A stretch of 64,000 nt of DNA from Fimicolochytrium jonesii. Lineage: Eukaryota. Shown here piece by piece: positions 2,797-52,098 of the stretch. How positions within the stretch are numbered: the stretch's first letter is position 1; each line of letters begins with the position of its first letter. The notes under the pieces were generated by a model, which was not told the DNA's origin, searched no databases, and saw only the letters and a program-made list of their open reading frames with translations. Where the stretch lies: assembly GCF_025526975.1 (NCBI RefSeq), contig NW_026515670.1, forward strand, positions 434,001-498,000. The letters are read 5' to 3'. A program made the position numbers and the translations under genes.

Positions 2797-3450
2797 TTAA
2801 CCCGCCACCGTAATAGCCGCCGCTGCCCCGTCACCGGGGGCTCCACCGGCTCCGGCTCCGCTTCCACCAGGCGGACCCCCTAAACCACCTCCCCCGCCGT
2901 TTCTGTCACTGTCTCCATCATCACTCGAAGACCAATCATCCATGTGCTTTCGCAAGTACTGGAGTTGCTTCATCATCTTGTCTCGCTCCCGTCTCTTGGC
3001 CGCATCACTGCGGCGCTTCGCCTCTTTCATCTTCTCCTTTGTTATGCCGCCTTTTCCTTTATATCGCGACTCCGAGACTGCCTTACATCCAAGGTAGTCT
3101 GCCTCTTCCATCAATGCCTCGAACGACCCCTTCTTTCGGTTCGATCGATCCAGTTTCGCCTTCGTAAACGCCAGGTGCTTCGCGAGGTTCTCATGGTTAT
3201 CCTTGCGGTACCTCCACGTCGATACCTCCGTTGCCAATCGAAGAGCTTCTCTAACTTGGGCTTTCGACATCGAAGAGTCGCCTGCGGACGCTGCGGACGA
3301 TGCGCGCGTAGAGCGCGTTGTCGGTCATGAGGGTCCCGGCGGAGGTGCAGCTGGAGCGGCTACTGGCCTCACCATCTTACGGGCCGTTTGCTTCTTCTTG
3401 CCGTCGCCGCTCTTCTTGCCACTCCCGCCGTTCTTGCCTCCGATTGCCAT
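2797..3450 (-). pseudogene. antisense accessory ORF in the copia 3' region, copy 1 (217 codons, one internal TGA)
   Basis: ATG at 3450 runs in frame to TAA at 2797 with a single TGA at 3327-3325 (CGA in copy 2). TATAAAA lies on the minus strand at 3549-3543. A homologous copy is at 11466-12044. Confidence 0.7.
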
Positions 3451-3695
3451 TTTTTTGCGTATTGTGTGGTAGTCTGGGATATGGTAGTTGAGTATGGGAA
3501 CGTTGTTCTTACCTCTCTGGGGCGACTGACAGCTGTCTCTTGTTTTATACTTGCGGCGATTTCCTCTTCTTTCATTTTACTCTTTCATTTCTTTCATTTT
3601 TAGTCATAGCTATTCACCCGACGTCCGCCCGCTTTTCGCGTACGGCCGCACTATTGTACTCATTGTTTGTTTTATCTTTCACTTAGATAGACTCA

Positions 3696-3883
3696 TGTCA
3701 CCTTAGGGTAGGGCATGAGATCACGTGTAGCATAGATTATATTGGAGTCCTACGCTCTGGGGTTACTCCCGAAGGGAAGAAAAGCCTTCGGGCGGCGCCC
3801 CAGGAGGTAGAAACTCTGGAATTCTTTCAATACATCGAGCGGAGACCGAGCTAGCGTCTGGCAACGGACCTAGCATTATTACA
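3696..3883 (+). repeat. 5' LTR of gypsy element A (5'-truncated)
   Basis: Aligns with 11266-11465, ends in ...TTACA, lacks the first 19 bp and has an internal deletion of about 12-13 bp. Confidence 0.9.
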
Positions 3884-3896
3884 TGGTAGCACCACC
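3884..3896 (+). promoter_or_regulatory. primer-binding site, probably initiator tRNA-Met
   Basis: TGGTAGCACCACC immediately follows the LTR-terminal CA. TGGTAGC is complementary to the usual 3' end of eukaryotic initiator tRNA-Met. Confidence 0.7.
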
Positions 3897-3922
3897 CTTC
3901 AAGATCTGTCTGGCAACCTACG

Positions 3923-5435
3923 ATGAGCAACTCTCAGGCGGGTGCTAATACCGCCGTCAGCTACGCGATAGTTAACAATGACCGCTTAGAGCTTGATCCA
4001 TTTGAACACCCGCATCGAAGGGCGCAACGGCTCGACGGCGACCAACGCCAAGGCAACGGCCCCGCAGAGCGTAACCGCCCCTTGCACAGGCGCAGGGGGT
4101 CACCCCCGTGGTCGCCACCTGGAAGGAGGCACTCCAGCTCACGCTCAGCGCGTCGACGTCGAAGCCCGGACCCCCGACGCCGGAATCGGACGCCAGAGCA
4201 GTACAGGCGCGGACGACGAGCTCGCAGGAGCATCTTCCCACCCCGTCGAAGGAGTCGCTCAGCAAGCCGCCACCACAGCCGCTCCCCGGCAAGGACCCGA
4301 AGCCGCTCCCCCATGCGGCGCAGGAGCCGTACCCCAGCCCGACAAGAGAACAGACAGGCAACAATCCTCCAAATCCTAGCCCAGCTGGCCAACACCAACG
4401 CCCAACTCCAGCAGCAATTCGAGCGCCTGGAGATGGACCGTCCAGATGACGGCCCCTTTGCTGGAGTACGGGTTAGCCGCGAGGACCATTTGGCGGCTGG
4501 CGAAGAGCGTAAGCGCAAGGCGGCCGCGGAGAAGGAGTTTCGAACCACCTTGGCTAAGATGCTGACCAAGATCGACGGTAAGCCTAACGGTAAAGACATG
4601 GTTGCCAAACTGGATGAGTTCGTCGACGCCCACCTACGCTATCTGGAAGCCACCGAATTCAGAACGGAGGACGGGGACGTGAAACACTTCGTAGCCCACT
4701 TGTCGGGAGACGCCGCTGAGCGGTGGAAGCTCGAGGCTCGCTTCAGAGAGCCTCCCGCCACCCGGGAACGGTTCCTGAAGGCACTCAGGCGCAGGTTCTA
4801 CCCCGCCAACCTCCGTAATTCGGTTGAGGCGAAACTGGCCGCGCTGAAGTTCAAAGACAGCATGTCCCACTACGTTTCGGCCTTCAACGCACTGACCACA
4901 CAGATTGCTATGCTCCCCAAAAAGGAACATCTTACGCCGGGACAGAAACGTGAGTACTTCCTGACCTTCCACCAGGTCGGACGTTGCATCCGTGAGTAGT
5001 GTTACCAGTTCATCCTACAAGAGGGCAATGAGGACGAAGACATCCCCATCAAGACCCTTCAGGAAGCCGCCCAGAGGGCCTTCCGCATCAGGGGTTATGC
5101 CGACCGGATCGCCCGCATTTTGGAAGACAGCAAACGGGTCCAACCCGCTAAGGCCACTCCGGCCCAGGCTCGCGAAGCGCGATACGCCCCGCACCTTCAA
5201 CTCCAACTGAGTACCCCTTGGGAAGGGGAGGAAAACTCAGCAAGGCGAATGTCACACTTGCGGCAGCAAGGACCACTACGCCCGAGAGTGCCCTAAGAAC
5301 CCGGACCGTCTCAAGATCTCGGCGGCGCCCGCCAAGGCCTTCGATGATGACAACAAGGAGTTCCATGTGGCCGCGGAGGAACCCCCAAGCCCCGCGTACT
5401 CCATCAAAAGTGAGGATTTTCTCCCCAGGGCCTGA
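3923..5435 (+). pseudogene. gag of gypsy element A (RS-rich N-terminus, retrotrans_gag, CCHC knuckle), with stops
   Basis: 358-aa ORF with LSGDAAERW...FLKALRRRF. It continues past stops to CHTCGSKDHYARECP (~5250-5295) and ends at TGA 5433-5435. Confidence 0.85.
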
Positions 5436-5830
5436 CCGCCTGCAGGGTCTCAGCGTCCACACAACCCGAGGGACCTACCGGACCCCGACTGCAGGACACC
5501 ATTCCGGAATAACGCCCCGGGCCCGTCACCGACAAGCACACGTTCATGGTTCATGGACGTGTTGGCGGTATCTTCGGCCGCATCCTCATAGACACCGGTT
5601 GCAATACCATGCTCGTCAGCGACTCAGTCGCACAACGCCCTGATCTTAACACGTACCAGTGTCCCACAACCCTTGAGGTGCGCTGGGGTGACAAAGCCGG
5701 ATCATATGGCGCCACGCGGATGATTTGCGCCGACCTCTCCGTCTTCATGGAGGAACGAATACCTCATAAGACCCCTCCGGTCCCGTTTGTCGTGGCCCCG
5801 ATCCGTGCGGATGTTATCCTAGGGCTACCC

Positions 5831-6359
5831 TGTTATGAATGGGCGGAGCCGATGGAAATAGAGGCGACTTGTGGTGCAGGTTGTTGACAGGTAATGGTAT
5901 TCAGACCGAAACAAGAACTGGAACAAGACTAGGAAGAACTGGTGTTGATCTGCTGGGGGATCAGGAAGTGGGGAGCTCAGGGAGGCGGCTATTTATGTTT
6001 TTCTGGGAAGGCTGGGGAAGCGTGGGGAAGCAGAAGGGTACGGAATGAGAGGGAAGCCAAGAGAAGCGCCAAGGTTGGGGAAGCATAGAAACAGAAGACT
6101 GGGGATGGGGTGGCTACGCTGAGGCTGTGGGCGGGTACGTGGGGAAGTATGGAGAAGGGTTTGTAAGCGCCGAGTGTTGGGAGGTGTGGCTACGTGCGGC
6201 TGCGTGGAGAAATGAAGGCAGTGGCAGGTGTGGGGTAGCGCGGCTGCGTGCGGCTGCGAGGTTTGGCAGATGTCAGGTTTTGACAGGGAATTGACATTGA
6301 CTGACTGTTGGGATGCTGTCATGAGGTAAGCGCATGGTATGGACGCGTCGTCCATAACA
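5831..6359 (-). mobile_element. solo LTR related to gypsy element B, inserted in the protease of element A
   Basis: Ends are TGTTATGA...CCATAACA with a perfect 5-bp TSD TACCC (5826-5830 and 6360-6364). It shares blocks with the LTR at 23753-24290 (GAAGAACTGGTGTTGATCTGCTGGGG; GCGTCGTCCATAACA). Removing it rejoins protease DVILGLP|YILDL. Confidence 0.93.
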
Positions 6360-7977
6360 TACCCTACATCTTGGACCTTGCCCTCATACGCTTATGGCGC
6401 GACAATGGGTTCCCGGCGCTTCAATTTGAGGCTAACGCAACCGTACTAACTTTCCGAGCTAAACCCTCCACCCGTCGATGGCAGCAACCCAGCGCTTGCA
6501 CGGCCCGGTTACTCGAACCTCATACGGCCCTCGCCCCCGCCGTTTCTACCCCAAGCGAGCGGCCTTAAATGAGGAGAGCTTCCTCACGGCCAAACAATTC
6601 AAGCGAGTAATCAAGAGGGATAAGACCACCGAGGTCTATACCGCATGGGTCTCACGCACGGACACGGATGTGGACCTGGCCACACACAACACCCTTGCGG
6701 ACGTCGCCGAAGCCGAGGCCAACTTTGTTCGCACGATAGAGGCGAAGAAACGTGCGATCCTAGCGGACCGAAAGGCAACGGCCACCCCCCCCGGATACCA
6801 CCCCGGAGGACCCACTCCTGTCGGTTGCCGCCGACCACCCTCTTTGCCCCACGTTGGAACAGTTTACAGATACCCTCTTCACCGAACAGACCGGCCTGCC
6901 GCCGGACCGCGGCGACGACAACTTCAGCATCAATCTGAAGCCCAGCTCCAAGCCTGTCATGCTCCCACTCCGCCACTTGGCCCCCGACGCACTCAACAAG
7001 CTACGGCCGCAACTCGAGCGCCTATCATCCCGTGGGTGGATCTCCCACTCTAAGAGCCCCTGGGGGGCACCCGTACTGTTTGCCCCAAAGAAGGACGGTG
7101 GCCTCCGCTGCTGCATCGACTACCGGGCCCTCAACAAGATGACCCATAAGGACGCCACGCCCCTCCCGAACCTCAACGAGCTTCGGGACCGCCTCGTCGG
7201 CATGAAGGTCTTCACCGCTATCAACATCCGCGATGCCTACCACTGCATCCTCATTCGGGAGGAAGACCGTGAGAAGACTGCCTTCCGGACGCGCTTCGGC
7301 CACTTCCAGTACAACGTATTACCCTTTGGGCTGACAAACACACCCAGGACGTTCCAACGCCTCACGAACAAACTCCTGGGTGACAAGTACGATTCATACC
7401 TCATCTCTTACCTCGATGACATCCTCATTTTCAGTCCCAACATGGACTCACACATCGGGCATGTCACTGAAGTGCTCAAGACCCTCTCGGCTCACCGCCT
7501 TCACGTGAAACCGTCCAAATGGCAGTGGGCAGTGGACCAGGTCAAGTTCTGCGGGCACATGGCCAGTAAGGACGGCCTTTCCATCGCCCTATCCAAGGTC
7601 GAGGCTGTCCGCGCTTGACCCGAACCCACCAGCGCCCTCGAGCTCCTCTCCTTCATGGGGCTAGTCAACTTTGTCAAGGAATACATTCCGCATTATGCTG
7701 ACACAGCCCTCCCACTGACCAACCTTCAATCCGGCACCCGCCCGTGGCAGTGGGGCGCCGAGAAACAAGCAGCCTTCGACACCATCAAGGCGCGCGTCAC
7801 CGATGCCCCTTCCCTGGCGTTCTTCGACCGTGATAAGTTCCCTACGTCTTCTCCGACGCGTCGGGCTTCGCCGTAGGGGGCTGGATCGGTCAGGGCACGG
7901 ACTGTCAAGGGAATCGTCTCGATCGCTCGGAACGCCCTGGAGAGGTGGTACAGTCACAGAGAGAAGAGAAAAATGTT

Positions 7978-8024
7978 TGGGGAAGGTAGGACTCAAACCC
8001 ACGCCACCTGGGTGAGAGCCAGGT
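7978..8024 (-). pseudogene. 3' half of a tRNA-Glu(CTC)-like sequence (tRNA pseudogene or SINE fragment)
   Basis: Minus strand: anticodon arm CCTGG-CTCTCAC-CCAGG, variable loop TGGC, T-arm GTGGG-TTTGAGT-CCTAC, 3' acceptor strand CTTCCCC-A, then a T5 run. The D-arm is absent. Confidence 0.65.
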
Positions 8025-9837
8025 GACTATCGAATACCTCCCCGGCGAGTTCAATCACATCGCCAACATCCTCAGCCGCACACCGCTGTACGCCCCAAAG
8101 TGCGCCAGCTGTCAGATGAAGGTCGAGGTGATCTCCATTGTAACCGGAACACCTATACCGCACATCACCGGCCGCCTCCCTACCGACGCCGAGTGGCTCA
8201 CTGCGCTTGACAATGACCAGTTCTGCAAGGACACCCTCGCCCACCTGCAGACCACCGCAACAAACCCCGATGACCCCTCTACCCTCTCGGGTTTTGCCCG
8301 CCGCCTCACGCGCGACGACCGCGGCTTCCTTTTGTACCATGGCCGCCGCTACGTCCCCGAGGGCCTTCGGGGCCCGCTCCTCCGGTTCTATCATGACTCC
8401 CTGGCCAACGGCGGCTACTCGGGTGTCCAGCGCACCGTCGCCAAACTCCTCGCGCTCTACTACTGGCCCCGCCTCAAGCGCGAGGTCCACCAGTACGTCC
8501 GAACTCGTCTCAACTGCGAACGCAACAACCAGGCCCCCAACTTCGGGCTCCTACGCAGCATTCCGGTCCCCGACAAGCGCTGGTGTTGCGTCGGCTTGGA
8601 CATCTACTTCCCCAAGACAAACTCGAAGGGGGGTGAAGTGGGAGACGAGTCCGTCATGGACAACGGAGCCGTCCTCATCCTGGTGGACTACTTATCCAGC
8701 CGCGTAATCCTCCTCAAGCCCCACGCCAAGGCGACGGCAAAGGAACTCGCCCGGCTGTTCTTCGACCAGGCCTTCCGCATCACGGGCATGCCCCACATGA
8801 TCATCAGCCATCGGGACACCAAATGGACCGGCGCCTTTTGGAAGCACCTCCTGAAGTGCGCCGGCGTAGAGCAGGAACTCTTGTCGGCACGACACCAACA
8901 GACCGACGGCAAGACAGAGAACGTCATCAAGACAATCAAGAAGATGATGGTCCCCTACCTGAACGACACCAGCTCGAACTGGCGTAAGATGCTTCCCCTC
9001 CTTGAGTACAACTACAACAGGACGCCCCAGACCTCCACGGGCATGTCCCCGTACGAGATCGACATCAGGTACATCCCAAAGGTACCCGACCAATGGGGTA
9101 CCAGCGACTCAACAGAGCAACTGAAACACGCCAATCGAAAGTGCATTGAGGAGCGCATGCAGCAACTGATCGAGGTAAGCCCCATCGTTCAGCACAGACT
9201 CCGAGAGGCCCAGAAGAGGCAGGCAAGATACTACGACAGAAACAAGAATACGGATGCGTCCGTAGTAGGCAACCAGGTCCTGCTGAACCGCGAAGGCATC
9301 CAGATCAAGAGTATCTTGGCCCGAAACCAGAAGCTGTCCGCGCTGTGGATCGGGCCCTTCACCGTCAGCGGAAAGGGGCCCCACCCGGACACCTACGAGC
9401 TGGAGCTCCTCCATGAGTTCAGTGGACTACACCCGGTGTTCCACGTCAACATCCTACGCAGGTACAACCCTCTGGAGAACGGCCCATACCGAAAAGTGGA
9501 CGCGCCACCCCCCCCCCCCCCCCGAGGAAGTCAACGGCAAACTCGAACACCGAGTTGGAGACATCCTCGATTCCAAGTGGGTACGCAACACCGAGATGTT
9601 CCTGGTCAAATGGGCCGGCTACGATGTGTCCCAGAACACCTGGGAGCCACTCCACCACGTCCGCGACACCTCAGCCCACAAGCGATATGTCCGAAAGCAA
9701 GCCGCCAAGCGCCAGGAGACTCGGGAGACCAAGGGGAAGGAGAGAGCGGCAGTCTCTCGTCGCTGTAAACATATCTGAACCTTGTACATACATCAAAACA
9801 GAGTTTCTACTGTCCGAAATGATCATTACCATTGCGG

Positions 9838-10077
9838 ACCCATGCGGGCGGGTACTTAGTACCAAGGCCTATGATGCAGGCGGTCACGTAGTACAAGGGC
9901 CTATGAGGCGGGCGGGTACGAGGTACCAGGGCCTATGCGAGCGGGCAAGCGAGGTGTCAGGGCTCATGCGGGCGGGTATGCAATACCAAGGCCCAAGATC
10001 CGGGCGGGTACAAGGTACCATGGCCTATGCAAGCGGGTGCGAGGCACCAGGGCTCAGGACGATCGGTGAAGTACCAA
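9838..10077 (+). repeat. degenerate tandem repeat, about 8 units of 27-32 bp
   Basis: Consensus close to GGGCCTATGCGGGCGGGTACNAGGTACCA, repeated head to tail between the pol stop and the end of the antisense gene. Confidence 0.8.
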
Positions 10078-10144
10078 AGGGAAACGCTTCAAGGAGATCA
10101 AATTCAACAAAACATATACAAGAAAGAAGAACGACGACGCCAGG

Positions 10145-10902
10145 CTAAATACCAGCCTGTTTGGCAAAAGACCATTGGCAACGTGTGCCGTGGCAGGCGG
10201 CCCCCATGCCACAACGCCGCGGGACGAACTGCTGGACGTTCATCTGGCTAAAGGGAGCGCGTCACGTCAACGGCGGGACCTGTCAAAGATTCACGACTGT
10301 TGTACTTACGCGCAGACATGCCCCATACAATTGATGTGGTCGCAGGGCAAGACCTGCACGTCCTGGGCCAGAGAATTGCAGTCGGGCCACACACAGGTGC
10401 AGGGTAGCCCCTGGCAGAAGAGCGGCGTTTCGCACTCCTCCTCAAAACTGTCAACGTAGCCGCACGTAAACCCACGGACGCGCGTGTCGGTCTGTCGGAA
10501 AGAGACGTGAGCTGTCAGTCACCTCACGGGAACCACCCATAACATGCGGTTCCTTACGGTGTCATCACAGAGCGGGAGGATGCAAGGCCGGCATATAACG
10601 TGCTGGCACGCTGAGAGGAACATCTTGCGGGGGCCAAACGTGTTGCAGTTCCAACACGTAGGTCGGGCCGGTGGAACGGGGGCTCCGGGGTACTGTCCGA
10701 GTGCACCTCAGGGGTGTCCTGAGATAGAATTGGTCAAACCACGTAACTTCGGTCAATTGGGTACCCTCCGTAGACTCACCACTTGCTGTCGCTTGAGAGC
10801 CTTCTTTAGGCTGTCCCCTTTGGTGGGGCCCTCGCCTACTCGCTTCTTGCCCGATGATGGGCTGGCAGCGGCAGGCTTGGCTGGAGGAGCTACGCTGGCC
10901 AT
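10145..10902 (-). CDS. antisense 4-exon gene inside gypsy element A encoding a ~189-aa protein with two RING-like zinc fingers (possibly frameshifted)
   Basis: Exons 10902-10780, 10718-10558, 10491-10310, 10247-10145. Introns are 61, 66 and 62 nt with GTGAGT/GTAAGG/GTAAGT donors and YAG acceptors. Motifs CWNC-x12-CQHVICRPC and CVWPDC-x11-CDHINCMGH. The model needs +1 nt in the C5 run at 10682-10678, or an alternative acceptor at 10693. Confidence 0.75.
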
Positions 10903-11004
10903 GATGAAGATGGGAACGGCGACGGTGAGAGGTTTACGAGATTGCGAGCAAGAAATGTAAGTCCGAGGACTGGTGGGAAGGTGCCGCAGGGACCACTGCC
11001 TTCC

Positions 11005-11012
11005 TTTTTATA
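11005..11012 (-). promoter_or_regulatory. TATA box of the antisense RING gene
   Basis: GCATATAAAAAGG on the minus strand, about 100 nt upstream of ATG 10902. Confidence 0.6.
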
Positions 11013-11246
11013 TGCCGCGGGGACAAGGACCATGGCCCCCCACGACCAGCTGAGGCCGATTCATCTCTACCTCATATCGGCGTGGATCTGATTGCCATCA
11101 TGGTGACCACCGGTGACGCCAGCCGCTCCAGTAGAGCCATGCGCACTCCTCATGGCCGACACCTGTGTTAGCTCCACATCAAGTAGCAGCGGGGAGCGAC
11201 TGACAGGTGCGGTCGGTGTCGGAGTGACACTTGGCTCTAAGGGGGG

Positions 11247-11465
11247 TGTAATGAGGTGCTGCAGGTGTCACCTTAGTGCGGGGAAGCCCGTAGGGCATGA
11301 GATCACGTGTAGCATAGATTATATTGGAGTCCTACGCTCTGGGGTGACTCCCTAAGGGAAGAAAAGCCTTTGGGCGGCGCCCCGGGAGGTAGAAACTCTG
11401 AGATTCTTTCATTACATTGAGCGGAGACAGAGCTAGCCTCTGGCAATGGACCTAGCATTCTTACA
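11247..11465 (+). repeat. 3' LTR of gypsy element A
   Basis: TGTAATG...TTACA, preceded by a PPT and homologous to 3696-3883. Confidence 0.92.
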
Positions 11466-12044
11466 CGGACCCCCTGGACCACCTCCCCCGCCGTTTCCGT
11501 CACCGTCTCCATCATCACTCGAAGACGAATCATCCATGTGCTTTCGCAAGTACGTGAGTCGCTTCATCAACTTGTCTCACTCTCGTCTCTCGGCCGCATC
11601 ACTGCGGCGCTTTGCCTCTTTCGTCTTTTCTTTCGATATGCAGCCTTTTGCCTTATATCGTGACTCCGAGACTGCCTTACACCCAAGGTAGTCTGCCTCC
11701 TCCATCAATGCCTCGAACGACCCCTTCTTTTGCTTTGATCGATCCAGCTTTGCCTTCGTAAACGCCAGGGGCTTTGCGAGGTTCTCATGGTTATCCTTCC
11801 GGTACCTCAACGTGGCCACCTCTGTCGCCAATCAAAGAGCTTCTCTCACTCGGGCTTTCGACATCGAAGAGTCGCTTGCAGACGCTGCGGACGATGCGTG
11901 CGTAGAGCGCGTTGTCGGTCGTGAGGGTCCCGGCGGAGGTGCAGCTGGAGGGGCTGCTGGGGTCCCCGACTTACGGCCCGTTTGCTTCTTCTTGCCGTCG
12001 CCGCTCTTCTTGCCACTCCCGCCGTTCTTGCCTCCCTTCGCCAT
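11466..12044 (-). pseudogene. antisense accessory ORF, copy 2 (two CGA>TGA stops, 3' end cut at the gypsy LTR)
   Basis: ORFs 11832-12044 and 11577-11831 are in frame and homologous to 2797-3450. TATAAAA lies at 12143-12137 on the minus strand. Confidence 0.7.
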
Positions 12045-12566
12045 TGTTTCGCGTATCGTGTGGTCGTCTGGGATATGGTAGTTGAGTATGGGAACTTTGG
12101 TCTCACCTCTCTGGGGCGACTGACAGCTGTCTCTTGTTTTATACTCGCGGCGTTTCCCTCTTCTTTCATTTTACTCTTTCATTTCTTTCATTTTAGTCAT
12201 AGCTATTCACCCGACGTCCGCCCGCTTTTCCCGTACGGCCGCACCATTGTACTCATTGTTTAGCTTTATCTTTCACTTAGATAGACTCGTGAGTTTGAGT
12301 GGGGGTGTTGGAGGTATCATCCTCCCGAGTCCCCGGTTAGGGTTCCCGTAGTTTATTTCCTCACGTGACTCCCCTCCCGCTTACGCCACACTTCCGAGTA
12401 CGGGACTTCACTCTTTTCTTCCCTTTCGGACCTTGTGTCCTCATTACACCACAGACTTTTCTAAACAAGACAATACATACTTCACAGTACTACATCTCAC
12501 ACAACATAGAGTTTGCTCAGTCATCTGCTTCCTCTGCCGACTACTGCTAAGTGCTCAGTTCCAGCA
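11466..12566 (+). mobile_element. 3' end of a copia-type element (second copy): antisense ORF, PPT and LTR
   Basis: 11466-12289 is a diverged copy of 2873-3695. It is followed by TTGAGTGGGGG (PPT) and an LTR at 12306-12566 with ends TGTTGGA...TCCAGCA. Confidence 0.8.
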
Positions 12567-23752: not shown

Positions 23753-24290
23753 TGTTATGATCTCGACGACGGAGGCGGAAGCGAAGTAGAGAAGACAGGG
23801 CGAGAGTGATAGGCGACAAGAGATTGTATTGGCGAAACAAGAAACAAGGACTAGAACAGGAGATGAGAAGAACTGGTGTTGATCTGCTGGGGAGGAAGGG
23901 GATGGACGAAGAGAGGCCGGCTATTTATAGATAGGCAACCCAGCAGATCAGAGAACAACAACAACAAGAGGGGACTGGGGGGCGCCAGCTATGCTCCTAG
24001 AGCGTGCGTGGCGAGCGTAGAGAGCATTGCTACAGCTGCTGGCTATGGGGAAGCAGTGGGGGGTGTGGAGAAGCCGAGGGGGGATTGGCGAAATGAGAGG
24101 AGAGTGGAGGAGTGGCAATATTGCAAGAGGATTGGCGAAATGAGAGGAGAGAGGGGGAGTGGCATTGACATTGACATTGACACTGACATTGACACTGACA
24201 TTGACATTGACATTGGCGTTTGACATTTGGCGGTTGACATTGGCGGCTGTCAGTAGGTAAGCTTATGGTATGGGCGCGTCGTCCATAACA
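23753..24290 (-). repeat. 3' LTR of gypsy element B
   Basis: Minus strand TGTTATGG...TCATAACA follows the PPT AAAGAGAGGGGTGA. Contains a GACATT microsatellite and is related to the solo LTR at 5831-6359. Confidence 0.92.
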
Positions 24291-27200
24291 TCACCCCTCT
24301 CTTTAGCGGCGGCGGCGGCGGCGTCGAGTTTGGTGTGGCCGCAGAGGAGGTGCTATGGGGACAGAGGAAGGCTTGTTGGGGTACGCGTTGTGGAAGTCCT
24401 GGAGAAGTGCGTCGGTATGGGTGAGGTGTTCCACGGGCTCCCAGGTGTTCTCAGAGTCAGGCCAGCCCTGCCATTTGACCAAGTACTGAAGGCGACGACG
24501 ATGGATGCGAGAGTCAAGGATGGCTTTGACAACCCACTCTTCTTGACCCTCAACGGTCTCTGGGGGCGCGGGTTCGGGTTCGTGTCGTTCGGGGATGGTG
24601 AGGCGGGGTTCGAGGAGCGAGACATGGAAGACATCGTGGATTTTGTACGTAGGCGGGAGCTTGAGCCGGTAGGCGACGGGATTGATTTTTTCAACGATGG
24701 GGAATGGACCAATCTTGCGATGGTCGAGTTTCTGAGAGGGCCGGGTTGTCTGGAGGTTTTTGCGCAGGAGCCAGACGTGGTCGCCAGGCCTGAAGTCCGG
24801 TCCAGGAATTCGTTTGGCGTCGGCGTAGCGCTTCATTTGATCTTGGGCTTCCTTGAGCTCGAGGGCGAGCTGTTCATGGACTTCCCTGATTTGTTTAGCG
24901 CGGGCTTCAGCGGCGGGGTTGACGGATTCGGAGGTAGCAGAGGCCGCGAAACTGAAGCGGGGGTGGAGACCCTTGTTGGCGTAGAAGGGGGTGGTCTGGG
25001 AGGCAGACTGATGGGTGTTGTTGTAGGCGAACTCGGCGGACGTCAGAAGCTGTTTCCAGTTGTCCTGTTGGTGGTTGCAAAAGCATCAGAGATACTGCTC
25101 CAGGATCTGGTTGGTGCGTTCCGTCTGGCCATCGCTCTGGGGGTGGAAGGCCGAGGAGAGGTTGGCTTTTGCCCCAAGGAGTTCGAGAAGTCGACGCCAG
25201 AACCGGGACTTAAACTGAGGTCCTCGGTCAGAGATGACGTCGTCGGGGAGGCCGTGGAGACGGATGATGTTGTGGAAGACTAGGTCGGCGGTGGATTCGG
25301 CGGATTCTGACTCGCTGCAGGCGATGAAGTGGGCCATCTTGGTGAGGCGACAGTTGACGTTCAGGATGGAGTCGTACCCGTCCACGGGAGGCAGACCGGA
25401 GATAAAGTCCAGGGACCAAGATCCCCAAGGGCAGGTAGGGATACTGTTGGGCTGGAGTAGGCCGTATGGTTTGTGTCGACTGGATTTCGCTTGGCTACAG
25501 GTATCGCAGGACTTGACGTAGGCCTTGACGAAGCGCCACTGGCCGGGCCACCAGTAGTTGCGGGAGGCGAGTTCGAGCGTCTTGGACATCCCAAAGTGGC
25601 CGGCTAGGGGAGTATCGTGCATGTCGTGGCAGACTTCAGCTCGGAGCTCGTTGGTGGGGACATAGACCAGGTTATCGTGCAGCAGGATCCCATCTTCATC
25701 TGAGAACCGCTTGATACGATCTTGGGTTTCCTCAGTTCGTTGGGCGAGGGGTATCTTGAGCTTTTCGCGAATGGTCTTAGCGAGGGGATCAGAGGCCTGG
25801 GCGGCCTTAATCTTGTCAAGCAGCGTGGTATCCATGGGTGTGAGGTAGGCAGCCGGCGAGTCGAAGGCGTTCGGGAGTCAAAATTGTGGTTGCCTGGGAG
25901 CGGAACGCTTCTTCCCCCTCTTTTAGCTCATGTTCGGAGCGTCGGGAGAGGGCATCGGCTTGGTGCTGCTGGGAACCGGGGCGATAGGTAATGACAAAGT
26001 CAAAATCCGAGAAGAATATCGACCAGCGGGCTTGGCGGCGGTTCAGGGTGCGGGTGGTCATGAAGTACTGAAGGTTTTTGTGGTCGGAGTAAACGGTGAT
26101 CTTGTGACGGGCGCCAATGAGATGGTGGCGCCACTGGGCAAAGGAGTCTTGGATGGCCAGAAGTTCCTTGTCGTAGATCTCGTAGTTGATCTCTTCGGCC
26201 GTGAATTTGCGAGAGTGGAAGGCCACGGGGTGGAGCTGATTGTCCTGGTCAGGTTGGAGGAGAACTGCGCCAAGAGCGAAGTCGGAGGCGTCAGTTTCGA
26301 CGACGAAGGGCTTCTCTGGGTCAGGGTGAGCAAGGATGGGGGCGGTGGTGAATGCTTTCTTCAGGTTCTCGAAGGCGGTGTTTGCGGCGGGTGTCCAGGC
26401 GTACGGGATGTCTTTCCGGGTCAGGGCTGTGAGCGGGGTAGCGATCTTGGAATAACCTTGGATGAATCGGCGATAGAAGTTGGCAAAGCCGAGGAACCGC
26501 TGGACGCCTTTGACATTCTTGGGAGGTTCCCAATCCGTGATGGCAGCGATCTTCTTGGGGTCCATCTGGATGCCTTTCTTGGAGATGATGAAGCCTAGGA
26601 ACTCAACGGATTCGCGGTTGAATTCGCACTTCTCTGGTTTGGCGTACAACCCATGCTGTCGGAGGCGGGACAAGACTTCGCGGACATGTTTGGGGTGATC
26701 TTCGGGGTTCTTGGAGAATATCAGGATATCGTCGAGGTAGACGACAACAAACACATCGAGAATGTCGCGGAAGATGTCGTTCATCAGGTACTGGAAGACG
26801 CCAGGAGCATTGCTGAGTCCAAAGGGCATGACATTGTATTCGAATAGGCCGTAGCGGCAGCGGAAGGCGGTCTTCCATTCATCGCCCGGGCGCATGCGTA
26901 AGAGGTTATAAGCGCCGCGGAGGTCGATCTTGGTGAGACGGCGGGCGCCGCGCAAACAATCCATGATACCGTTGATCAGGGGCAGGGGGTAGCGATTCTT
27001 CACCGTGATGCTGTTCAGGCCTCGATAATCGACGCAGAGGCGGAGAGAACCGTCCTTTTTCTTCACGAATAAGACTGGCGCACCGGCAGGGGACTTTGAG
27101 GGTTTGATGAATCCTTTGGCGAGGTTTTCTTCGAGGTATTCGCAGAGTGCCTTCATTTCTGGTTCGCTGAGGCTGTAGATCGGGCCGAAAGGTGGCTGCT

Positions 27201-28171
27201 TGCCTTCTTCCAGATCGATTGGACAGTCGTAGGGCCGGTGCTTGGGGAGAGTGTCAGCATTTCTCTTTTCGAAAACAGTCGGCGAAGTCTCGATACTCGG
27301 GGGGCAGGAAGTCTTTGATGTCTTTCTCGGGTGTCGGGGGTTACTGGGGCTAGGCGAGGCCGGGAGATCGGGTTTTCGCAGGGTTGGCGTAGGCGACAAA
27401 GACCTGGTCATGCCTTGCTGTGACCCGGAAGGCTGGGGCGGAGATGAACGAGACTTGGAGCGGCGTGGGAGCCGGTTCTGGGGTGCTGGAGCGAGATACC
27501 TTGAGTACTGGAATCGACCATGTTTCGTCGACGGGGACTTCATCCTGGGGGATGCGGATCAAGGGCTTGGGGGTTCTGGCGGGTGCTGGGCTCGGGGGTG
27601 CTGGAGAGTTGTCCCAATTCGTGAATTCATGGTACAGACAGTCGCAACGGAAACCGACCGAAAGGTTCTTGAAATCAAGGTTAATGTCGTGGAGGCGGAC
27701 CCAGGGGAGACCAAGGAGGATTGGAGCATGGGGTGATTTGGTGACATGGAAGACGAGTTCTTCGAAGTGGTCGTCGACCCACAGGCCTACTGGTTGGGTG
27801 TGATGGGTGATTGGCCCAGCAGAGCTGGGTTGACCGTCAACGAGTTCGATCATCAGTGGACGCTGATGCGGGACTAGGGCGATGCGGTGTTTGCGGGCAA
27901 AGTCTCTGTCAATGAAGCAGGACAGGGCACCGTTGTCGATCATGGCTGAGGTAGGTATCGGGGCGCGGCTGGATGATACCATGATGGTAACAGGGTAGTT
28001 GAAGGGTTCGACGGGACCCAGCGCAAGCATGGCGCGGGGGTTAATTTCGGAGTTTTCGACATGGGCAGCGGCTAGGAGGGTTGTGTCGGCTATAACGGAG
28101 TCGGGAACCAGGGGGGTGGCCTCTCCCGTTGCAGGAGCTGCGAGGTTAGGAGGCCCGGGGCGGTGTGTGTT

Positions 28172-28216
28172 GTCCAGTCGCTGGGGCTTTACTGCGGCTG
28201 GACTTTGGGAAAACCC
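28172..28216 (-). promoter_or_regulatory. -1 programmed ribosomal frameshift signal (gag-pol)
   Basis: G GGT TTT in correct phase (28216-28210), a 6-nt spacer, and stem GTCCAG-c-CGC...GCG-a-CTGGAC. The -1 frame is open into the protease ORF. Confidence 0.75.
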
Positions 28217-29164
28217 TGTTCGGTGGAGGGTTCTTTGATGTCGACGTTGGCGGCACGGGTGGTGGTCTTGTTCTTGACGGGGCAGACTTTTGCAATGTGC
28301 CCCGCGCCACCGCAGTAAAGGCAGAGGTTGTTGGAAATGCGGCGTTGGCGTTCCTGAGGGCTCAGAGGGCCGCAGGGACGAGCGGCGTCAATCTGCATAG
28401 GATCGCTGTGGTCGACAGTGGTGGTAGTAGTAAACGAGGTATGGGGAACCGGGAAGGTCTGGCGGCTTCTGTTTCGCTCCAGGCGGCGCTCAAACAGCCG
28501 GTTATCGCACTGGATAGCCTGCTCCATCACCACATCAATGGTGGCCGCAGGGGGCATCGTGAGCATCAGGTCTTTGACGTCTTCTTTAAGGCCACGGTGG
28601 AAGGTAGCAATCAGGGCCTGGTCGTTCCAGGAGACATCGCATTGTAGCTGGCGGAACTCAGCAACGTACTCGGTTGCCGCACGGGTTTGGCGAAGGTTCT
28701 GGAGCTTGTTTTCCGAGGTGCGGACCCTGTCGCTGTCTCCGAAGATCGATTGCATCTGACTGATAAAACTATCAAAGTCCTGAATCTGCGAGCAACGTGA
28801 ATCTCATCCCGGTAAAACTCATCCAGGGCTGGATCTGGGATATGGACGAATGTCAGCCCATGTATTACTAAATTTGAAAATCAAAGTTGAAGTAGAACAT
28901 CATACCCGCATGTTCGTAATCCACGATGAACGCGGAGAACGCCTCGATGTTCATGCTCCTGTGTGACGGAATCTGTGATTCCATCTCAGCAACGCCGGCA
29001 TTGATCTTCCGCTCTGTCATGTCTCTTCGAAAGTACCGAGACTTTGTCTCGACCGCCCGTTGATTGGATGTGTATCTGATATGGGGTGGTGCATTGTGAG
29101 GACGCTGCAACGGAATGTCGCCGCAATGGGGATGGTGGGGATAGGGGCGGTGGGAGCGGCAGCG

Positions 29165-29355
29165 GCAACGGGGGGCTGGGGGGTGGAGACGGAGACGGAG
29201 ACGGAGACGGAGATGGAGACGGGGATGGAGACGGGGATGGAGATGGAGACGGGGGGCTGGCGGGCGGAGACGGGGGGCTGGCGGGCGGAGACGGGGGGCT
29301 GGCGGGCAAGGACGGGGGGCTGGCGGGCGGAGACAGAGGGGGGGGGGGGGGGGGG
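29165..29355. repeat. GC-rich simple repeats inside a Fanzor intron
   Basis: GGAGAC/GGAGAT hexamers, about four 21-bp GGGGGGCTGGCGGGCGGAGAC units and a poly-G run, all inside the intron 29396-29076. Confidence 0.85.
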
Positions 29356-30780
29356 TAGCGGGGACAGCAGGGCAGTAGTAATCAACTGAAACTTACCGAA
29401 ATGGCCGCTCCTTCTTGTTGTCTTGACAGAATAGGAGGTCACGCTTGCCCGGATCAATGCAGACGATGTTTGGAGCCTCCCTTAAGTCGTCAATGTGGTG
29501 CTCAAAATACTGTGAGGCGCCTATGACAAGGCAGGTGCAGACCATGATTACACAAAAGAGGGCACCGCGGGGGGAGGGGGGGGGGGAATATACTAACTCA
29601 CCTAAATATGGCATTGCGTCCACCGCAAGGCTGTACGCAAGTGGTTCATCCTGGGGAGGAAACAGAGCCCATAACTTGTCGAGCACGGTCCGCTCAAGTC
29701 GTGTGAGGCGGGCAAACTCCTCTTCGGTTGGAAACTCTTCAAATGTTGCATACTTTGTAAACTGACGGACACGCTGATAATAGTGTCGCCGCTGCGCTCG
29801 GTTGACTCCAGCTCTACGGAGATGCAGTACGACTTGCTTCAAACCAAGCCTTTCATTGACATAGCGCAGAAGCATTTGAATGAAATGCTCTTGTACGTTG
29901 ACTTTGAGGTTTGTGAAGATGCTTGTAGCCGTGTACCCTGCGGTCTGTTGGCAATATTGCATGCGGATGGGGGCGAATCCATGAACATTACAGTAGTCTT
30001 GAACCCATGGACGCAACTCTTGCGCGATGACCGGATTGCCATTGTAGCCTGGATTGTTGAGCAGCTCAAACATCACACTGATGTGCTTGTCAGTGATGTC
30101 CGGGAAATCGTGTAGAGGATGATCAGCTGTGGTGGGCAGACGTACTAGTCAGGACATTGTTATGGGAAATATTATGGGAAATATACAGTGTACCTCAAAA
30201 ACTCACCAAGGTAGTACTTGAGAAAGAAGGTGGTGTGGCGCGCAAGGACGTGAACATTGCCGATGAACGTTGTCAGGCGCTCCCTTTGAACTTGATTCTG
30301 ATTATGGATTCGGTGAAGGGAAACCTTGGTGCTGGCATGCGTCTGCGGGCGGGGTCGTTGAACTGGTGGTGGTGGTGGCGGGGGCTCATACACCAGGGAT
30401 CCCCCCGGTGTGCTGGGAAAAAGGAAAGGGATGGGAGCGGGGAGGTTCAACGGACGCTGCAGACCCCTGTCCACCGGTGAAAGCCCTCGCTGCTGGTGCT
30501 GCTGCCCGTCTTCATCGCCGGAACTCTCGCTAACCATGTCTGCAATTGCTTGGGGCAAGTTTTTGACAGAAGGTGGGAATTCGAATCGCGGGGGCTGCAG
30601 TGGTGTCTGCACAGCGGTTGGCGGATTTATGGGCAGCCGCGGGGTAACCGGAGTAACTTTCCTCCTCTTCCGCCGTGGTGTGGTAGCTCCCGTAAAGAAG
30701 CCACCCCACAGGTGCCCCTGGACCGCCTGGTGTGATGACATGTTGGCTGTGCTGTGCCTTTTGCGTGCCTGCTAGAGATG

Positions 30781-44686: not shown

Positions 44687-47600
44687 ATGGGTTTCGCGGG
44701 TGGGGCCTTCCCGGGCGGCTTCCGCGAGTATATGCAAGTGAAACGAAGGAAGCTGGAAATACAAGGACAGGAGGTTGCCGTGGCAGGTTCCCAATCCAAT
44801 GTCTTGCAAGGGATCGTGATTTACTTCAATGGTAATAGTTGTGAGCGAGTGGTTTTTAGGCTAGTGGAGGGTGGGGCCGTCCCTGGCTCCTTATGTGAGC
44901 CACAGCGGACGATCGCTCTGAATTTTTTTTTCCCTGATCATCTGTGTTTCCTTCGCTGCTCAGGCTATACTGGAACAAGTGAGTTAACGATGATCCAATT
45001 GAAAGAGTTGGTTCTGGTGCATGGCGCTCGCGTGCGGGATAAACTAGAGCCCGATGTCACACATATTGTGGCCACGCAAGTATGAAATATACTGGCTTTC
45101 GCTGAACGATCATGCCAAACCGATAACCAGATGCCTGCCGCAGATGACAGACTCCAAGATAAATCAGCTGAGGAAACCAGTCGTGACGCCAGCATGGCTT
45201 TTGGATTCGATTCAGCAACAAAAGCTGCTCCCATGGATCCAATATCGATTGTACAGTGGTCTCGCTCCAACACAGAAAACACTGGCGGATTATGCGACCA
45301 CTTCAGATCCTCCCCTTGAAAAGCCACCGGCATCTTCCGAGGACGCCAACGAAGAATTGGGCTTACACCTTCAGTTGTCGGACGGGGAAAGCAGTGAAGA
45401 GGAAGCGGCGATACCTGATTGGGCGGAAGGTTATTTTGGGAAAGGGAGGCTACACGTGGACATGAACAGCGAGTGGGTGAAAGCAAACGTCTCGACGGCA
45501 CCAGGCTTTCTGCAAAAGTATTTCAATTCGTCACGGCTGCATCATTTGAGCACCTGGAAGAGCGAACTGCGTGACTTTGTCGCAGATCAAGCGCGGTCAA
45601 AACGAAAGAAGGACCGACCTACCTCAGGGCCACGCACGATAATGCATGTCGACATGGACTGCTTCTTCGCCTCTATATCCATCAGAGACAGACCGGAATT
45701 GCGCAATGTACCTGTCGCCGTCGCTCACTCGCCGGGGACTTCCAACAAATCCACTTCCGAGCTTGCATCGTGCAATTACGCTGCGCGAGAATACGGGATT
45801 CGCAATGGGATGTCGATTGGCCGTGCTCGCGAGCTCTGCAAAGATCTTCGCGTGGTACCTTACGAGTTTGACAAGTACGATGCAGCCTCCAAGGCGCTTT
45901 ATGCCATCTTGATCGACACAGCGGATGAGGTGCAGGCAGTGTCTGTTGATGAGGCATACATAGATGTCTCCTCGTTGATGCCCAAAACCTCGGATGGAAG
46001 CGAGATCAAACTCGCTGAGGATCTGAGAGCGCGCGTACTCGATGCCACCGGATGTCCTGCGAGGTGACGCCTAGACGTTTTCATCCCTCTGCTTCGGCGA
46101 CCTGATGTATGTCCTCCCCACTCCAGCATTGGCATTGGACCCAACATGCTACTTGCCCGGTTAGCGACAAAGAAGGCGAAGCCAAACGGCTCCTTTTTCG
46201 TGCCTCAAGAAGATGTCGCGACGTTCATGAGCGAGCTGCGTATCAGGGACCTCCCAGGTGTTGGCTATGCGTTGAGAACCAAAATGGAAGCTAAGAATAT
46301 CACAACGTGCCGAGAGCTTGCCCAACTGAGCTCGAGCGCACTCCAACGAGACTGCGGAGAGAAGATCGGACAGACACTCTACAATAGTATTCATTATGCG
46401 GCCTTTCGCTTGTCCCTTTACATCTCAACTGATCGAATTGCAATTCCAGACTGCCGCGGAATTGACAATCGGCCTCTCGAAAACAAGCCTCGGCAAAGCG
46501 TCGGTGCAGAGATCAACTGGGGTATGCGCTTCCAGAACTATGAACAGGTTAACAAATTCGTTCGCGAGTTGAGCGAAGAGGTCGTCAAACGCATGCGCGC
46601 AGCGTCCGTCAAGGGCAAGCATCTGACATTGAAGCTCAAGAAGAAGCGATATCAAGGAGAACCGCAGAAGGTTCTCGGCTGCGGCGATTGCGACAATCTC
46701 AGCCGCTCTGTGAAGTTTGCTCAGTTCATCGACGCTGTAGACATCGTCAGCAAAGAAGGGATTCGCATGGTCCATGAGCTCAATGTGGGCGCCGACGAAA
46801 TCCGTGGCCTAGGGCTGCATTTCTCCAGCTTGGAAGCATATGGCGACGCGTACACTAGCACCGACTTGAAAGGTCAGAGACGCCTAGATTTCGGGCCTGC
46901 ACCGGTCGCGGATGCACAGTCGTCTGAGCGACAGGAGTCAACCAAAAAAGGTACACCGGCACCGAAGCGCTCGAACGACCTGCTTGCGCAGTTCGGAATC
47001 AAACCTGGTGAAGTTGACTGGGACGTCTTGATGGAGTTGCCTGAAGATATTCGAGCGGAACTTCTACCATTGCTTGAAGAAAGGGCGAGCGCCGCGACGC
47101 CTACGAAGGCAACCGCACTATACATTGCGCATCAAACACCGCCGAAGAACAACCCGCGGGTGGACAAAGCGAACGTCAATTCATTCCATATGCTTCCAAC
47201 GGCATCGCAAGTAGACCCTGAGGTGATGCGGGCATTACCAGAGTCCATCCGGAAAGAGATGGAAGCAGCCATATCGCGCGCGAATGCATCAGGACGCGCC
47301 GGGCCGATTCAACGCCCGAACGCGAAACGTGGAACAAAAGGTCGCGGGGCAAAGTTTTCACCCACCAAAGGCCAGCTGCGATTCGATCAGATGATACCGG
47401 AAGTCCGTGACAACTCGACAGACCTGGCCATGAAGGCGGACACGGTGCCCGAACCATCGCCGCCTCCTACGTTGGGTGGACTTCAGGATGTGGAAGCAAT
47501 CCGGGAAATGCTGGGAGCCTGGGTGGAGCACTTCCGGAATGGACCCGAACCGGATGATGTCCTGGCGTTGAAGACCTACTTTGAAACGCTTGTGGAAGAT

Positions 47601-47810
47601 CTGGAGCTGGAGAAAGTTGATGCGCTTTTGTCGTGGTTGGGTTCCAAAATCAGGGCCGGAAAGCGCAGTGACAAGGGAAAGGGTAACGGAGCGTGGGCCG
47701 AAGCAAGCGAGGAACTGATGGATTCCGTCAAAAATGCCGTAAAAGCAAGATACGGCTGCGACCTGAAATCCGCAACTGTCGACAAAAACGGTACCCACAA
47801 CTATGTATAA
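44687..47810 (+). CDS. REV1: DNA repair protein REV1 (Y-family deoxycytidyl transferase), multi-exon
   Basis: BRCT (IYFNGYT, THIVAT, VVTPAWLLDS), SRLHHLSTWK, HVDMDCFFAS, SCNYAAR, VSVDEAY, UBM repeats (ELPEDIR, ALPESIR) and a C-terminal domain. The start codon is uncertain. Confidence 0.95.
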
Positions 47811-47852
47811 AGAAGCAAACCCGAAGTGTATGTTACAGATCCAATGGCCAAC

Positions 47853-50800: not shown

Positions 50801-51431
50801 CCAAGGTCCCTCCGCTGTCCGCCGAACTGTCGTCCGGCCCGATGTAGGAAAATGTCGTGTTCTGCGGTGCATTCGCCACATCCCACCCTATGCACTTCGA
50901 TGACGGATAGTACGCCATGTTGTAATTGTTTACTCTTGGCGTAGAGTAAGTGTACATCGCCTTGTCCGACAAGACCGTCTGCGCCAGCGTGTAATTCAGT
51001 CGGGTATATCCGGACGGCCAATCCGGCCAGACGGTCATGTCCGTCTCTCCGGCGGTCAGTTCTGCGATGCCCAGAAACACGACAGGGGTAATTGCCATGA
51101 CGCTCATGAGGACGGCAACGGCAAAGACGACTAAGCAGACGGAGCAGCAACCGATGCAGAACTGTGATTTTTGACGGGACGTCTCGCGGATGGAGTAGCG
51201 CCAAATGTTCGACACGCTTGTTCCTGCTGTCACAACTCGGCGATAGCGGGATTTGGGTGGATGTGCGTCGTGGCCATGTCGCCGCCGCAAAGGAGTTCCC
51301 TTGTCGCCGTTTCCATGGGGTGCTGGCGGGGCCTCGCCGCCGGCCCGCCATCGGTTTCCGCCCGGTACGTCGTTGGCGCTGGGTGCAGGGAGTGGTGGTA
51401 CGGGCGCCTGAATAGGCAAGACGCTCGCCAT
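47853..51431 (-). CDS. FtsX/MacB-type permease-domain membrane protein, multi-exon
   Basis: Two FtsX-like repeats (SVETRTFELGILRMIG; EQAKELGVLRALG) with flanking TM helices and large extracellular loops. Confidence 0.85.
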
Positions 51432-52098
51432 AGGCGACGGAATGGCTGATTGTCCGGTAAGCGGGAGGTAGTTGTTCGCGATGGGTTCCGGATAGACTCG
51501 ATGCTTGCGAGAAATCCTGGGTGCTTTTGCAGCCGGTAGCCCGTAGGCGCCCGTTATGAACTTCACACTGGTGCTGTCCTCAGATCTTCTAACATCCACC
51601 TCTCCGAGCGAGTCAATGGACACAATGCACAGGAAGCGGAGTACAAGCTCATTCGAAGTAGCGCGAATGACGCAGAAACGTGCGCCTTTTAAAGAGCCAG
51701 GATCACGCACGACCAGACAGTGGAATATGCAATGCTCAAGAACTTATGCAGGCTCGGTGAATGGGTTCCTTGCTTCTCGTGAGATGCTAGCCTTTATTGC
51801 CATCGACCAACATTTTCCGTGCAAATTCCGTCCGAAAACGCGTCGAGCGGAATTGCGAGTGATGAGTTCACGCGTCGAACGCCTGTTATTTTGCCAACCT
51901 TGTCAAAGCGACCACGGCCGCATGGCGAGGGCCACCACACACGAGCGAGGCATTGCTTGAGGATATAATGATTTATGTACATATACAGCACGAATAAAGG
52001 CAGACTTAGATATACAATTTCCATATGGAGCATGGATAGAAAACATAATAAGTTGGGTATGGAGGACCCTGCGCCATCTTGGGTGTATTTAGCCCGAG

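Follow-up and report, generated by a model that had tools for sequence, protein, structure and literature searches.

In this study we focus on a spliced gene that lies in antisense orientation inside a dead chromovirus, between pol and the polypurine tract (PPT), in a 64-kb stretch of DNA analysed as a whole (hereafter the window). The gene is almost certainly real. Profile matches and structural models indicate that the first of the two Cys/His units of its product is very probably a RING domain, and homologues occur among Powellomyces hirtus gene models and in the record of a Polinton-like virus.

The antisense gene and the element around it

As stated in the original prediction, the minus strand between pol and the PPT holds a TATA box (TATAAAA at 11012), an ATG (10902) and four exons separated by three canonical GT-AG introns of 61-66 nt; all of these are present in the sequence (Table 1). 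Intron 1 itself was confirmed, with its donor start corrected to 10779. The phases agree at all junctions, the exception being exon 2, which is one base out of frame. Each of the three introns has a YTRAY branch-like word 19-27 nt from its acceptor, and GC content is 48-55% in the introns against 60-63% in the exons. A GTRAG..branch..YAG pattern of 55-75 nt, defined post hoc once the introns had been seen, is found three times in the span, all on the minus strand and none on the plus; in 2000 Markov resamples the mean count was 0.09, and two or more occurrences were obtained in 12 of them. Moreover, the RING signature C-x-H-x-hydrophobic-C-x2-C, a PROSITE-type pattern, is found only once, at 10608, when the 64-kb window is read in all six frames.

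To restore the frame of exon 2, either a frameshift in its C5 run (10682-10678) or an alternative acceptor at 10693 had been thought necessary. The frameshift stands, and the alternative acceptor was rejected since the 13 residues that it skips match the homologues. This head of exon 2, here out of frame with the RING, is homologous to the P. hirtus proteins P0123 and P0127 and to the viral protein P0122, with scores reached by 3, 19 and 1 of 5000 shuffles. Therefore the 10719 acceptor is the conserved one (alignment score 330, versus 303 for 10693) and the window copy carries a frameshift, due either to decay or to a slip of the assembly in the C5 run. Most likely, the window copy is a pseudogene in a dead element and makes no protein.

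Table 1 Features of the antisense gene, of the chromovirus that carries it and of host genes, in window positions.
Feature	Position	Strand	Remarks
5' LTR, truncated at start	3698..3884	+	93% identity to 3' LTR over 179 nt
PBS-like TGGTAGCA	3885-3892	+	directly after 5' LTR; also in L002/L004/L006
gag	3890..5450	+	Ty3 capsid match; stop at 4999 breaks frame
pol	5513..9778	+	protease, RT, RNase H remnant, integrase, SH3, chromodomain
Solo LTR of another element	5831..6359	.	inserted in protease region; 5-bp target duplication TACCC
Repeat array, ~six 32-nt units	9842..10056	.	between pol and 3' end of antisense gene
Exon 4	10145..10247 (103 nt, TAG stop)	-	C10213, C10195, H10192, C10180
Intron 3	10248..10309 (62 nt, GTAAGT..TAG)	-	phase 2; P0122 ends at equivalent site
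Exon 3	10310..10491 (182 nt)	-	RING ligands 7-8 (C10464, C10434) and start of unit 2
Exon 3, unit 2 residues	C10395, C10380, C10344, H10338, C10329, H10320	-
Intron 2	10492..10557 (66 nt, GTAAGG..CAG)	-	phase 0; contains in-frame stop
Exon 2	10558..10718 (161 nt)	-	conserved 13-aa head, one frameshift near C5 run, then RING ligands 1-6
Exon 2, RING ligands 1-6	C10656, C10647, C10608, H10602, C10593, C10584	-
Intron 1	10719..10779 (61 nt, GTGAGT..CAG)	-	phase 0; site matches 25-aa read-through insert in P0122
Exon 1	10780..10902 (123 nt)	-	ATG, low-complexity Pro/Ala/Ser stretch, basic cluster
TATA box of antisense gene (TATAAAA)	11006..11012	-	110 nt upstream of ATG, within internal region of element; putative function
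Polypurine tract	11238..11247	+	abuts 3' LTR
3' LTR, 218 nt, TGTAA...TTACA	11248..11465	+
REV1	45048-47810	+	host gene
FtsX-like permease	47833-51743	-	host gene
Talin	56110-63907	-	host gene

The element has the features of a chromovirus, namely PR-RT-RH-IN order, a C-terminal chromodomain, TG...CA LTRs, a PBS and a PPT. On the plus strand the Pfam order is Asp_protease_2, RVT_1, Integrase_H2C2, SH3_Tf2-1 and Chromo, with RNase H partly deleted, and the closest named reverse transcriptase by identity is that of P. hirtus (78%). Together with the talin gene of the window, which fits an early-branching fungus, this makes a Spizellomycetales chytrid the likely host. Compared with the related protein P0003, pol has suffered four frame switches, one stop, a gap of ~93 residues and the inserted solo LTR; a C15 run at 9509-9523 shifts its frame. 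The antisense gene lies between the end of the chromodomain frame (9778) and the PPT (~11238-11247), with the 3' LTR downstream, and occupies most of the 1.46 kb separating pol from the PPT. A perfect 12-nt complement joins positions 9799-9810, just past pol, and 11389-11400 in the LTR; it may be due to chance (~0.1 expected by a rough count) or be an RNA pairing signal.

No target-site duplication of a single insertion was found at the chromovirus. On either side of the element lies one copy of a directly repeated 826-nt Copia segment; the two copies are 91% identical (2872-3697 and 11466-12291, the whole spanning window positions 2872-12291). Because its flanks are this long Copia duplication instead of a short target duplication, the chromovirus likely arose by recombination between two insertions that lay at different sites of two Copia copies. 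A nested DNA transposon carrying the gene was considered and rejected, there being neither terminal repeats nor a target duplication around the gene.

Other mobile elements surround this locus. The ends of the solo LTR (5831-6359) match 23841-23928 and 24246-24296, in the LTR of a second chromovirus that lies on the minus strand at ~24300-30000 and has no cargo after pol. In the neighbouring Copia element, pol extends over 22-2738, and the PPT and the start of a TGTTGG LTR lie near 12306. Between its pol and PPT is an antisense ORF of ~200 codons, present in both copies (2797-3450 and 11440-12044, minus strand). It has a TATA box, and its product is basic and rich in Gly, with no match in Pfam. 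Between the two copies pN/pS is 0.43 over 187 codons, and all three stops are CGA/TGA changes. Thus, antisense cargo is seen in two unrelated LTR superfamilies of the window.

Homologues and membership of the LTR family

A HMMER scan of 1.84 billion representative sequences gave four matches at E<=0.001, of which two are true homologues. P0122 (DAC81638.1, E 1.8e-15) is annotated as the 'oncoid' of Powellomyces chytrid fungus MELD virus 1, and P0123 (E 2.7e-9) is a P. hirtus gene model of 178 aa; the other two, P0124 and P0125, were discarded as low-complexity noise. Altogether the family has five P. hirtus gene accessions on four contigs, namely P0123, P0126, P0127 (two accessions) and P0128 (KAI8911323.1, KAI8903067.1, KAI8921334.1, KAI8921335.1 and KAI8904226.1). 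The P. hirtus models are 91-94% identical to P0123, and such dispersed, near-identical copies are as expected of mobile-element cargo.

P0123 spans all four exons end to end, and in its gene model they are joined at the three intron sites of the window. Its identity to the exon 4 product is 52% over 29 aa, and four exon 4 Cys/His are common to the window and P. hirtus proteins. P0122 is 41% identical to the window protein over 117 residues; it has 25-residue inserts at the sites of introns 1 and 2 and a stop at that of intron 3, so that it reads as an unspliced gene, apparently with the same three introns. In both homologues a KR cluster stands at the same N-terminal place as in exon 1. Every row of an alignment of four proteins (A3) retains all 14 Cys/His of units 1 and 2, at an overall identity of 41-53%. 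Whether splice sites and Cys/His ligands are conserved, a question on which the original prediction turned, is answered by these homologues, which keep both the exon structure and the Cys/His residues.

Beyond these, further searches added no relatives. A profile search over 2227 candidates of 69-345 aa returned only three clusters, all linked to Powellomyces, and a word-indexed protein search with the read-through frame as query gave no match. Family DNA was not found in metagenome, viral and prokaryote contigs by a weak scan with short exact patterns split by the introns; element scans of viral contigs and a tblastn of phages were empty. As far as these sequences indicate, the family is small, with relatives found only in one chytrid and its Polinton-like DNA virus.

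The MELD virus protein is a true homologue with shared Cys/His, unlike the window gene in that its annotation is a single unspliced ORF, with a name based on nothing but short motifs (PMC8502044, Starrett et al. 2021); neither 'RING' nor 'splic' occurs in the main text of that paper. Oncoids are a class defined by motifs (PMC11071296). An Rb-binding function was considered and rejected on the LxCxE motif: it is absent from all five family sequences tested, and the name 'oncoid' is therefore not borne out by that motif. Our comparison suggests that DAC81638.1 has been mis-annotated and is in fact spliced, with a RING product. The P. hirtus copies and the MELD gene may all reside in DNA viruses, or the MELD gene may reside in a nested retroelement.

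The window has one copy of the antisense gene, and for the recurrence of the gene in other copies of the LTR family, proposed as a check, the evidence points both ways. In its favour, a second sample (run X1) holds contigs 91-96% identical to the pol end and to exons 2-3, these being contigs of 151 nt at depth 2, with the pol-end and gene contigs unlinked. On the other side, among six related metagenome loci (integrase identity 38-41%) three reach a complete pol-to-LTR region (L002, L004 and L006, 38-40%), and the antisense gene is absent from all three; the other three loci end too early. In the three complete relatives the LTRs are very short (107-121 nt), and the assembly gives the elements as circular permutations or in tandem; the 917-nt pol-to-LTR spacer of L006 has an antisense TATA box and no clear ORF. 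Among related pol proteins, P0036 has a ~200-residue insert between RNase H and integrase for which Pfam PF05869, a family of Dam-type adenine methyltransferases, is listed, as it is for P0064 and P0111.

In the listed differences between X1 and the window the conserved ligands are unchanged, and the one indel, at 10543, falls in intron 2. The 10 listed coding differences (of 20 on two contigs) comprise 2 silent and 8 replacement changes, where neutrality expects 22% silent; they give no sign of purifying selection.

These data bear on whether the gene is a mere passenger, that is, an accessory gene of a MELD/Polinton-like virus, or a host gene, that recombined once into the retrotransposon lineage at the DNA level, kept its introns because it landed in antisense, and then decayed neutrally, of no service to the retrotransposon. 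The frameshift, the 2 silent against 8 replacement differences to X1, the absence of the gene from the three complete distant relatives, the higher identity of the P. hirtus proteins to the MELD protein (53%) than to the window protein (41%), and a locus that is a recombination hotspot of nested elements would all agree with it. However, there are no insertion scars around the gene; its promoter, four exons and all ligands are intact save for one lesion, while pol has at least seven; an identity of 41% with the ligands kept indicates long independent evolution; and the second sample has pol end and gene at similar identity. We regard a passenger as unlikely. The lack of an insertion scar, the place of the gene against the PPT, the multi-copy homologues and the X1 contigs favour a gene that is probably carried by this LTR family and is not a one-off passenger.

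The two Cys/His units of the protein

The description of the product as a tandem RING-like protein holds for unit 1, through its Pfam match and predicted fold, and is not supported for unit 2, which has no Pfam match, a low-confidence model and no fold match. All eight ligands of unit 1 follow the C3HC4 order and are invariant in the four rows of A3. Pfam zf-RING_5 was matched in five of the seven members scanned, at E 1.1e-4 to 4e-3, under the curated cut-off. In the AF2 model of P0123, built from an input alignment of only four rows and with a mean pLDDT of 43, residues ~54-113 are the best-modelled part (pLDDT 57-72). In a fold search with unit 1 (VIA), the 50 matches listed are RING, SP-RING or U-box chains as judged by title or by the complex they belong to; the best has a Z of 5.6 and an rmsd of 2.3 over 53 aligned residues, and the tool's own note rates Z <8 as weak. 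Foldseek likewise returned RING-type chains, none at E<=0.001. PDB sequence searches gave weak matches, the best RING match being PCGF5 (E 0.039). Weak as these scores are, profile and fold evidence concur in predicting for unit 1 the RING fold that had been anticipated.

A standard RING E3 mechanism is not supported by the details of unit 1. Its last Cys pair is C-x4-C in P0123, P0127 and P0122 and C-x9-C in the window, where canonical RINGs have C-x2-C (PMC5462532). The residue at the linchpin place after ligand 8 is Gly, Gly, Gly and Glu in the four rows, not basic; the basic linchpin, present in over half of canonical RINGs, is thus absent. A polar residue precedes ligand 2. Given its last pair and the absence of the linchpin, unit 1 is not a canonical RING E3. 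An extended last loop without linchpin is a feature of RBR RING1 domains (PMC5462532), a trait that unit 1 shares by its sequence.

Furthermore, a RING fold does not mean a ligase, because the top fold matches include the SUMO ligase Nse2 (first), TFIIH Tfb3 and the arenavirus Z protein. The product could then be a non-catalytic zinc scaffold or E2 decoy, in the manner of arenavirus Z or TFIIH Tfb3/MAT1, whose RING binds an E2, the Gag/integrase of the element itself or a transcription factor, and so obstructs or controls this partner with no transfer of ubiquitin. The lack of a linchpin, the polar residue before ligand 2 and the departure of the last pair from the canonical C-x2-C (PMC5462532) are consistent with this, and in the fold search Z and Tfb3 score level with ligases. 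Yet RBR RING1 domains with such a loop still bind E2 in working ligases (PMC5462532), and most viral RING matches, all of them weak, are annotated as ligases. We consider this reading decidedly unlikely.

Unit 2 begins 12 residues after ligand 8, and its ten conserved Cys/His are two above the need of a cross-brace RING. No Pfam match was obtained, nor any IBR or Rcat match at E<=10; its model has a pLDDT of 56 and a best fold Z of 2.5, without fold match. Comparison of unit 1 with unit 2 by hhalign gave a probability of 0.3% from very thin profiles, and an internal duplication giving rise to unit 2 is unsupported. Three readings of unit 2 may be considered: a variant RING; a catalytic C-x-H with two zinc sites, by the spacing of RBR RING2; or a knuckle with a CCCH-like finger.

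The catalytic reading would make the protein a minimal RBR-like ligase, in which unit 1 serves as a RING1 holding E2~Ub open and the conserved C-x-H of unit 2 (C10344/H10338) takes ubiquitin as a thioester, with no IBR. The RING1-like loop without linchpin would suit such an enzyme, and the ten Cys/His of unit 2 would fit a catalytic pair plus two zinc sites, given the Rcat spacing that we presume. Against it, the protein has just two Cys/His units, with no IBR domain between RING1 and RING2 and no Pfam IBR or Rcat match at E<=10; unit 2 has no fold match, RBR RING1 chains merely tie with other RINGs at a Z of ~4, and exon 4 is known from just two lineages. This makes a minimal RBR-like ligase quite improbable.

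Known systems and a possible role

The architecture is of a known kind, since antisense genes between pol and the 3' LTR have been described in plants and in Boty. Boty/BcGypsy1 of Botrytis cinerea is a chromodomain Ty3/gypsy element with the antisense gene brtn of Zhao et al. 2011 (PMC7264820, PMC8365987, PMC4227169); like the element described here, it is a fungal chromodomain element with an additional antisense gene placed between pol and its 3' LTR. The window gene differs in its predicted RING, its DNA-virus homologues and its likely chytrid host, and the two are likened by description, not by sequence. The gene brtn is reported to be multi-exon. The belief that no fungal chromovirus carries such cargo is thus contradicted by Boty as regards an antisense gene, and stands as regards a RING, of which no case was found in the open-access literature.

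The plant antisense ORFs (Grande gene23, RIRE2 and Retand TRP28) also lie antisense in the interval between pol and the 3' LTR, with their own promoter, a tandem repeat array in the region and a proposed nuclear role (PMC7264820, PMC11963269). They belong to non-chromovirus plant lineages (Retand) and are stated to be without relatives in other elements or viruses (PMC7264820), whereas the window gene has a viral relative. A passage search of the Retand paper (PMC11963269) gave no occurrence of intron, RING, zinc or ubiquitin, and for antisense products of this type PMC7264820 reports no known domain. For the plant antisense ORFs it has been put forward that the antisense transcript matters, through double-stranded RNA control of transposition (PMC7264820). 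Applied to the window gene, with no role for a protein, that idea is extremely improbable, as ligands and intron places are conserved at the protein level in the retrotransposon, the host gene models and the DNA virus.

As to the protein, RBR RING1 domains (HHARI, RNF144, HOIL-1L) and C3HC4 RING E3s resemble unit 1 in ligand order and predicted fold (PMC5462532, PMC5548887), and the former also in their extended last zinc loop without linchpin (PMC5462532); RBR ligases differ in the IBR and recognisable RING2 that the window protein lacks. The giant planarian gypsy elements Burro/GYPSM1 carry ubiquitin-pathway-like domains too (AIR1 zinc finger, MATH, BIR), in a sense ORF1 polyprotein and not in a separate spliced antisense gene (PMC6431247). 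Rotifers provide known cases of extra ORFs common to different types of retroelement (PMC5408684). A survey of fungal LTR elements (PMC3248453) has no occurrence of RING, antisense or ubiquitin, and our searches of the open-access literature yielded no RING cargo described as antisense and spliced, nor one that a Polinton-like virus has in common.

Introns of an antisense gene stay in the genomic RNA through reverse transcription. As the gene opposes the genomic RNA, its introns would go unspliced there and survive reverse transcription, and an intact family member would be copied at every transposition, introns included. There is about an even chance, in our view, that this spliced antisense gene is an accessory factor of chytrid mobile elements, likely engaging a host E2. 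The basic cluster of exon 1 suggests a predicted nuclear localisation signal, by which the N-terminus would bring the protein to the nucleus. Unit 1 would bind an E2 for ubiquitin or SUMO. Since its last zinc loop is long and a linchpin is missing, it would not bring about E2~Ub activation of the standard kind; a surface that handles the target or the thioester would come from unit 2. That the protein acts through an E2 seems to us slightly better than an even bet.

The target would be a silencing or restriction factor of the host, one that endangers retrotransposons as well as integrated DNA viruses; this would account for the presence of the gene in both kinds of element. Spizellomyces, a relative of the host that can be transformed, has 5mC in transposons only (PMC12695648), and in the duplicated Copia flanks 26 of 42 transitions fall at CpG, which makes up 16% of positions; silencing pressure is therefore plausible. 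Host silencing as the target is nevertheless a tentative and fairly unlikely proposal. The fullest version, a stripped-down RBR-type ligase (RING1 and a catalytic Cys, no IBR) whose intron-bearing gene is traded by chytrid retrotransposons and Polinton-like viruses as a shared counter-defence against a host silencing factor, is improbable.

The function of antisense genes in LTR retrotransposons has remained open because their products resemble nothing known (PMC7264820). It now becomes testable, since the domain is recognisable and can be assayed, P0123 is a natural homologue that is intact, and Spizellomyces offers a transformable host relative. The presence of the same gene, its introns apparently included, in the record of a Polinton-like virus points to genes passing between retroelements and DNA viruses; mobile elements that are not related seem to have in common a tool whose likely point of action is the host ubiquitin system. 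Were the RBR-type counter-defence true, no LTR retrotransposon before this one would have had an anti-silencing gene of the ligase type, and the gene would tie a retroelement to a dsDNA virus by a direct link.
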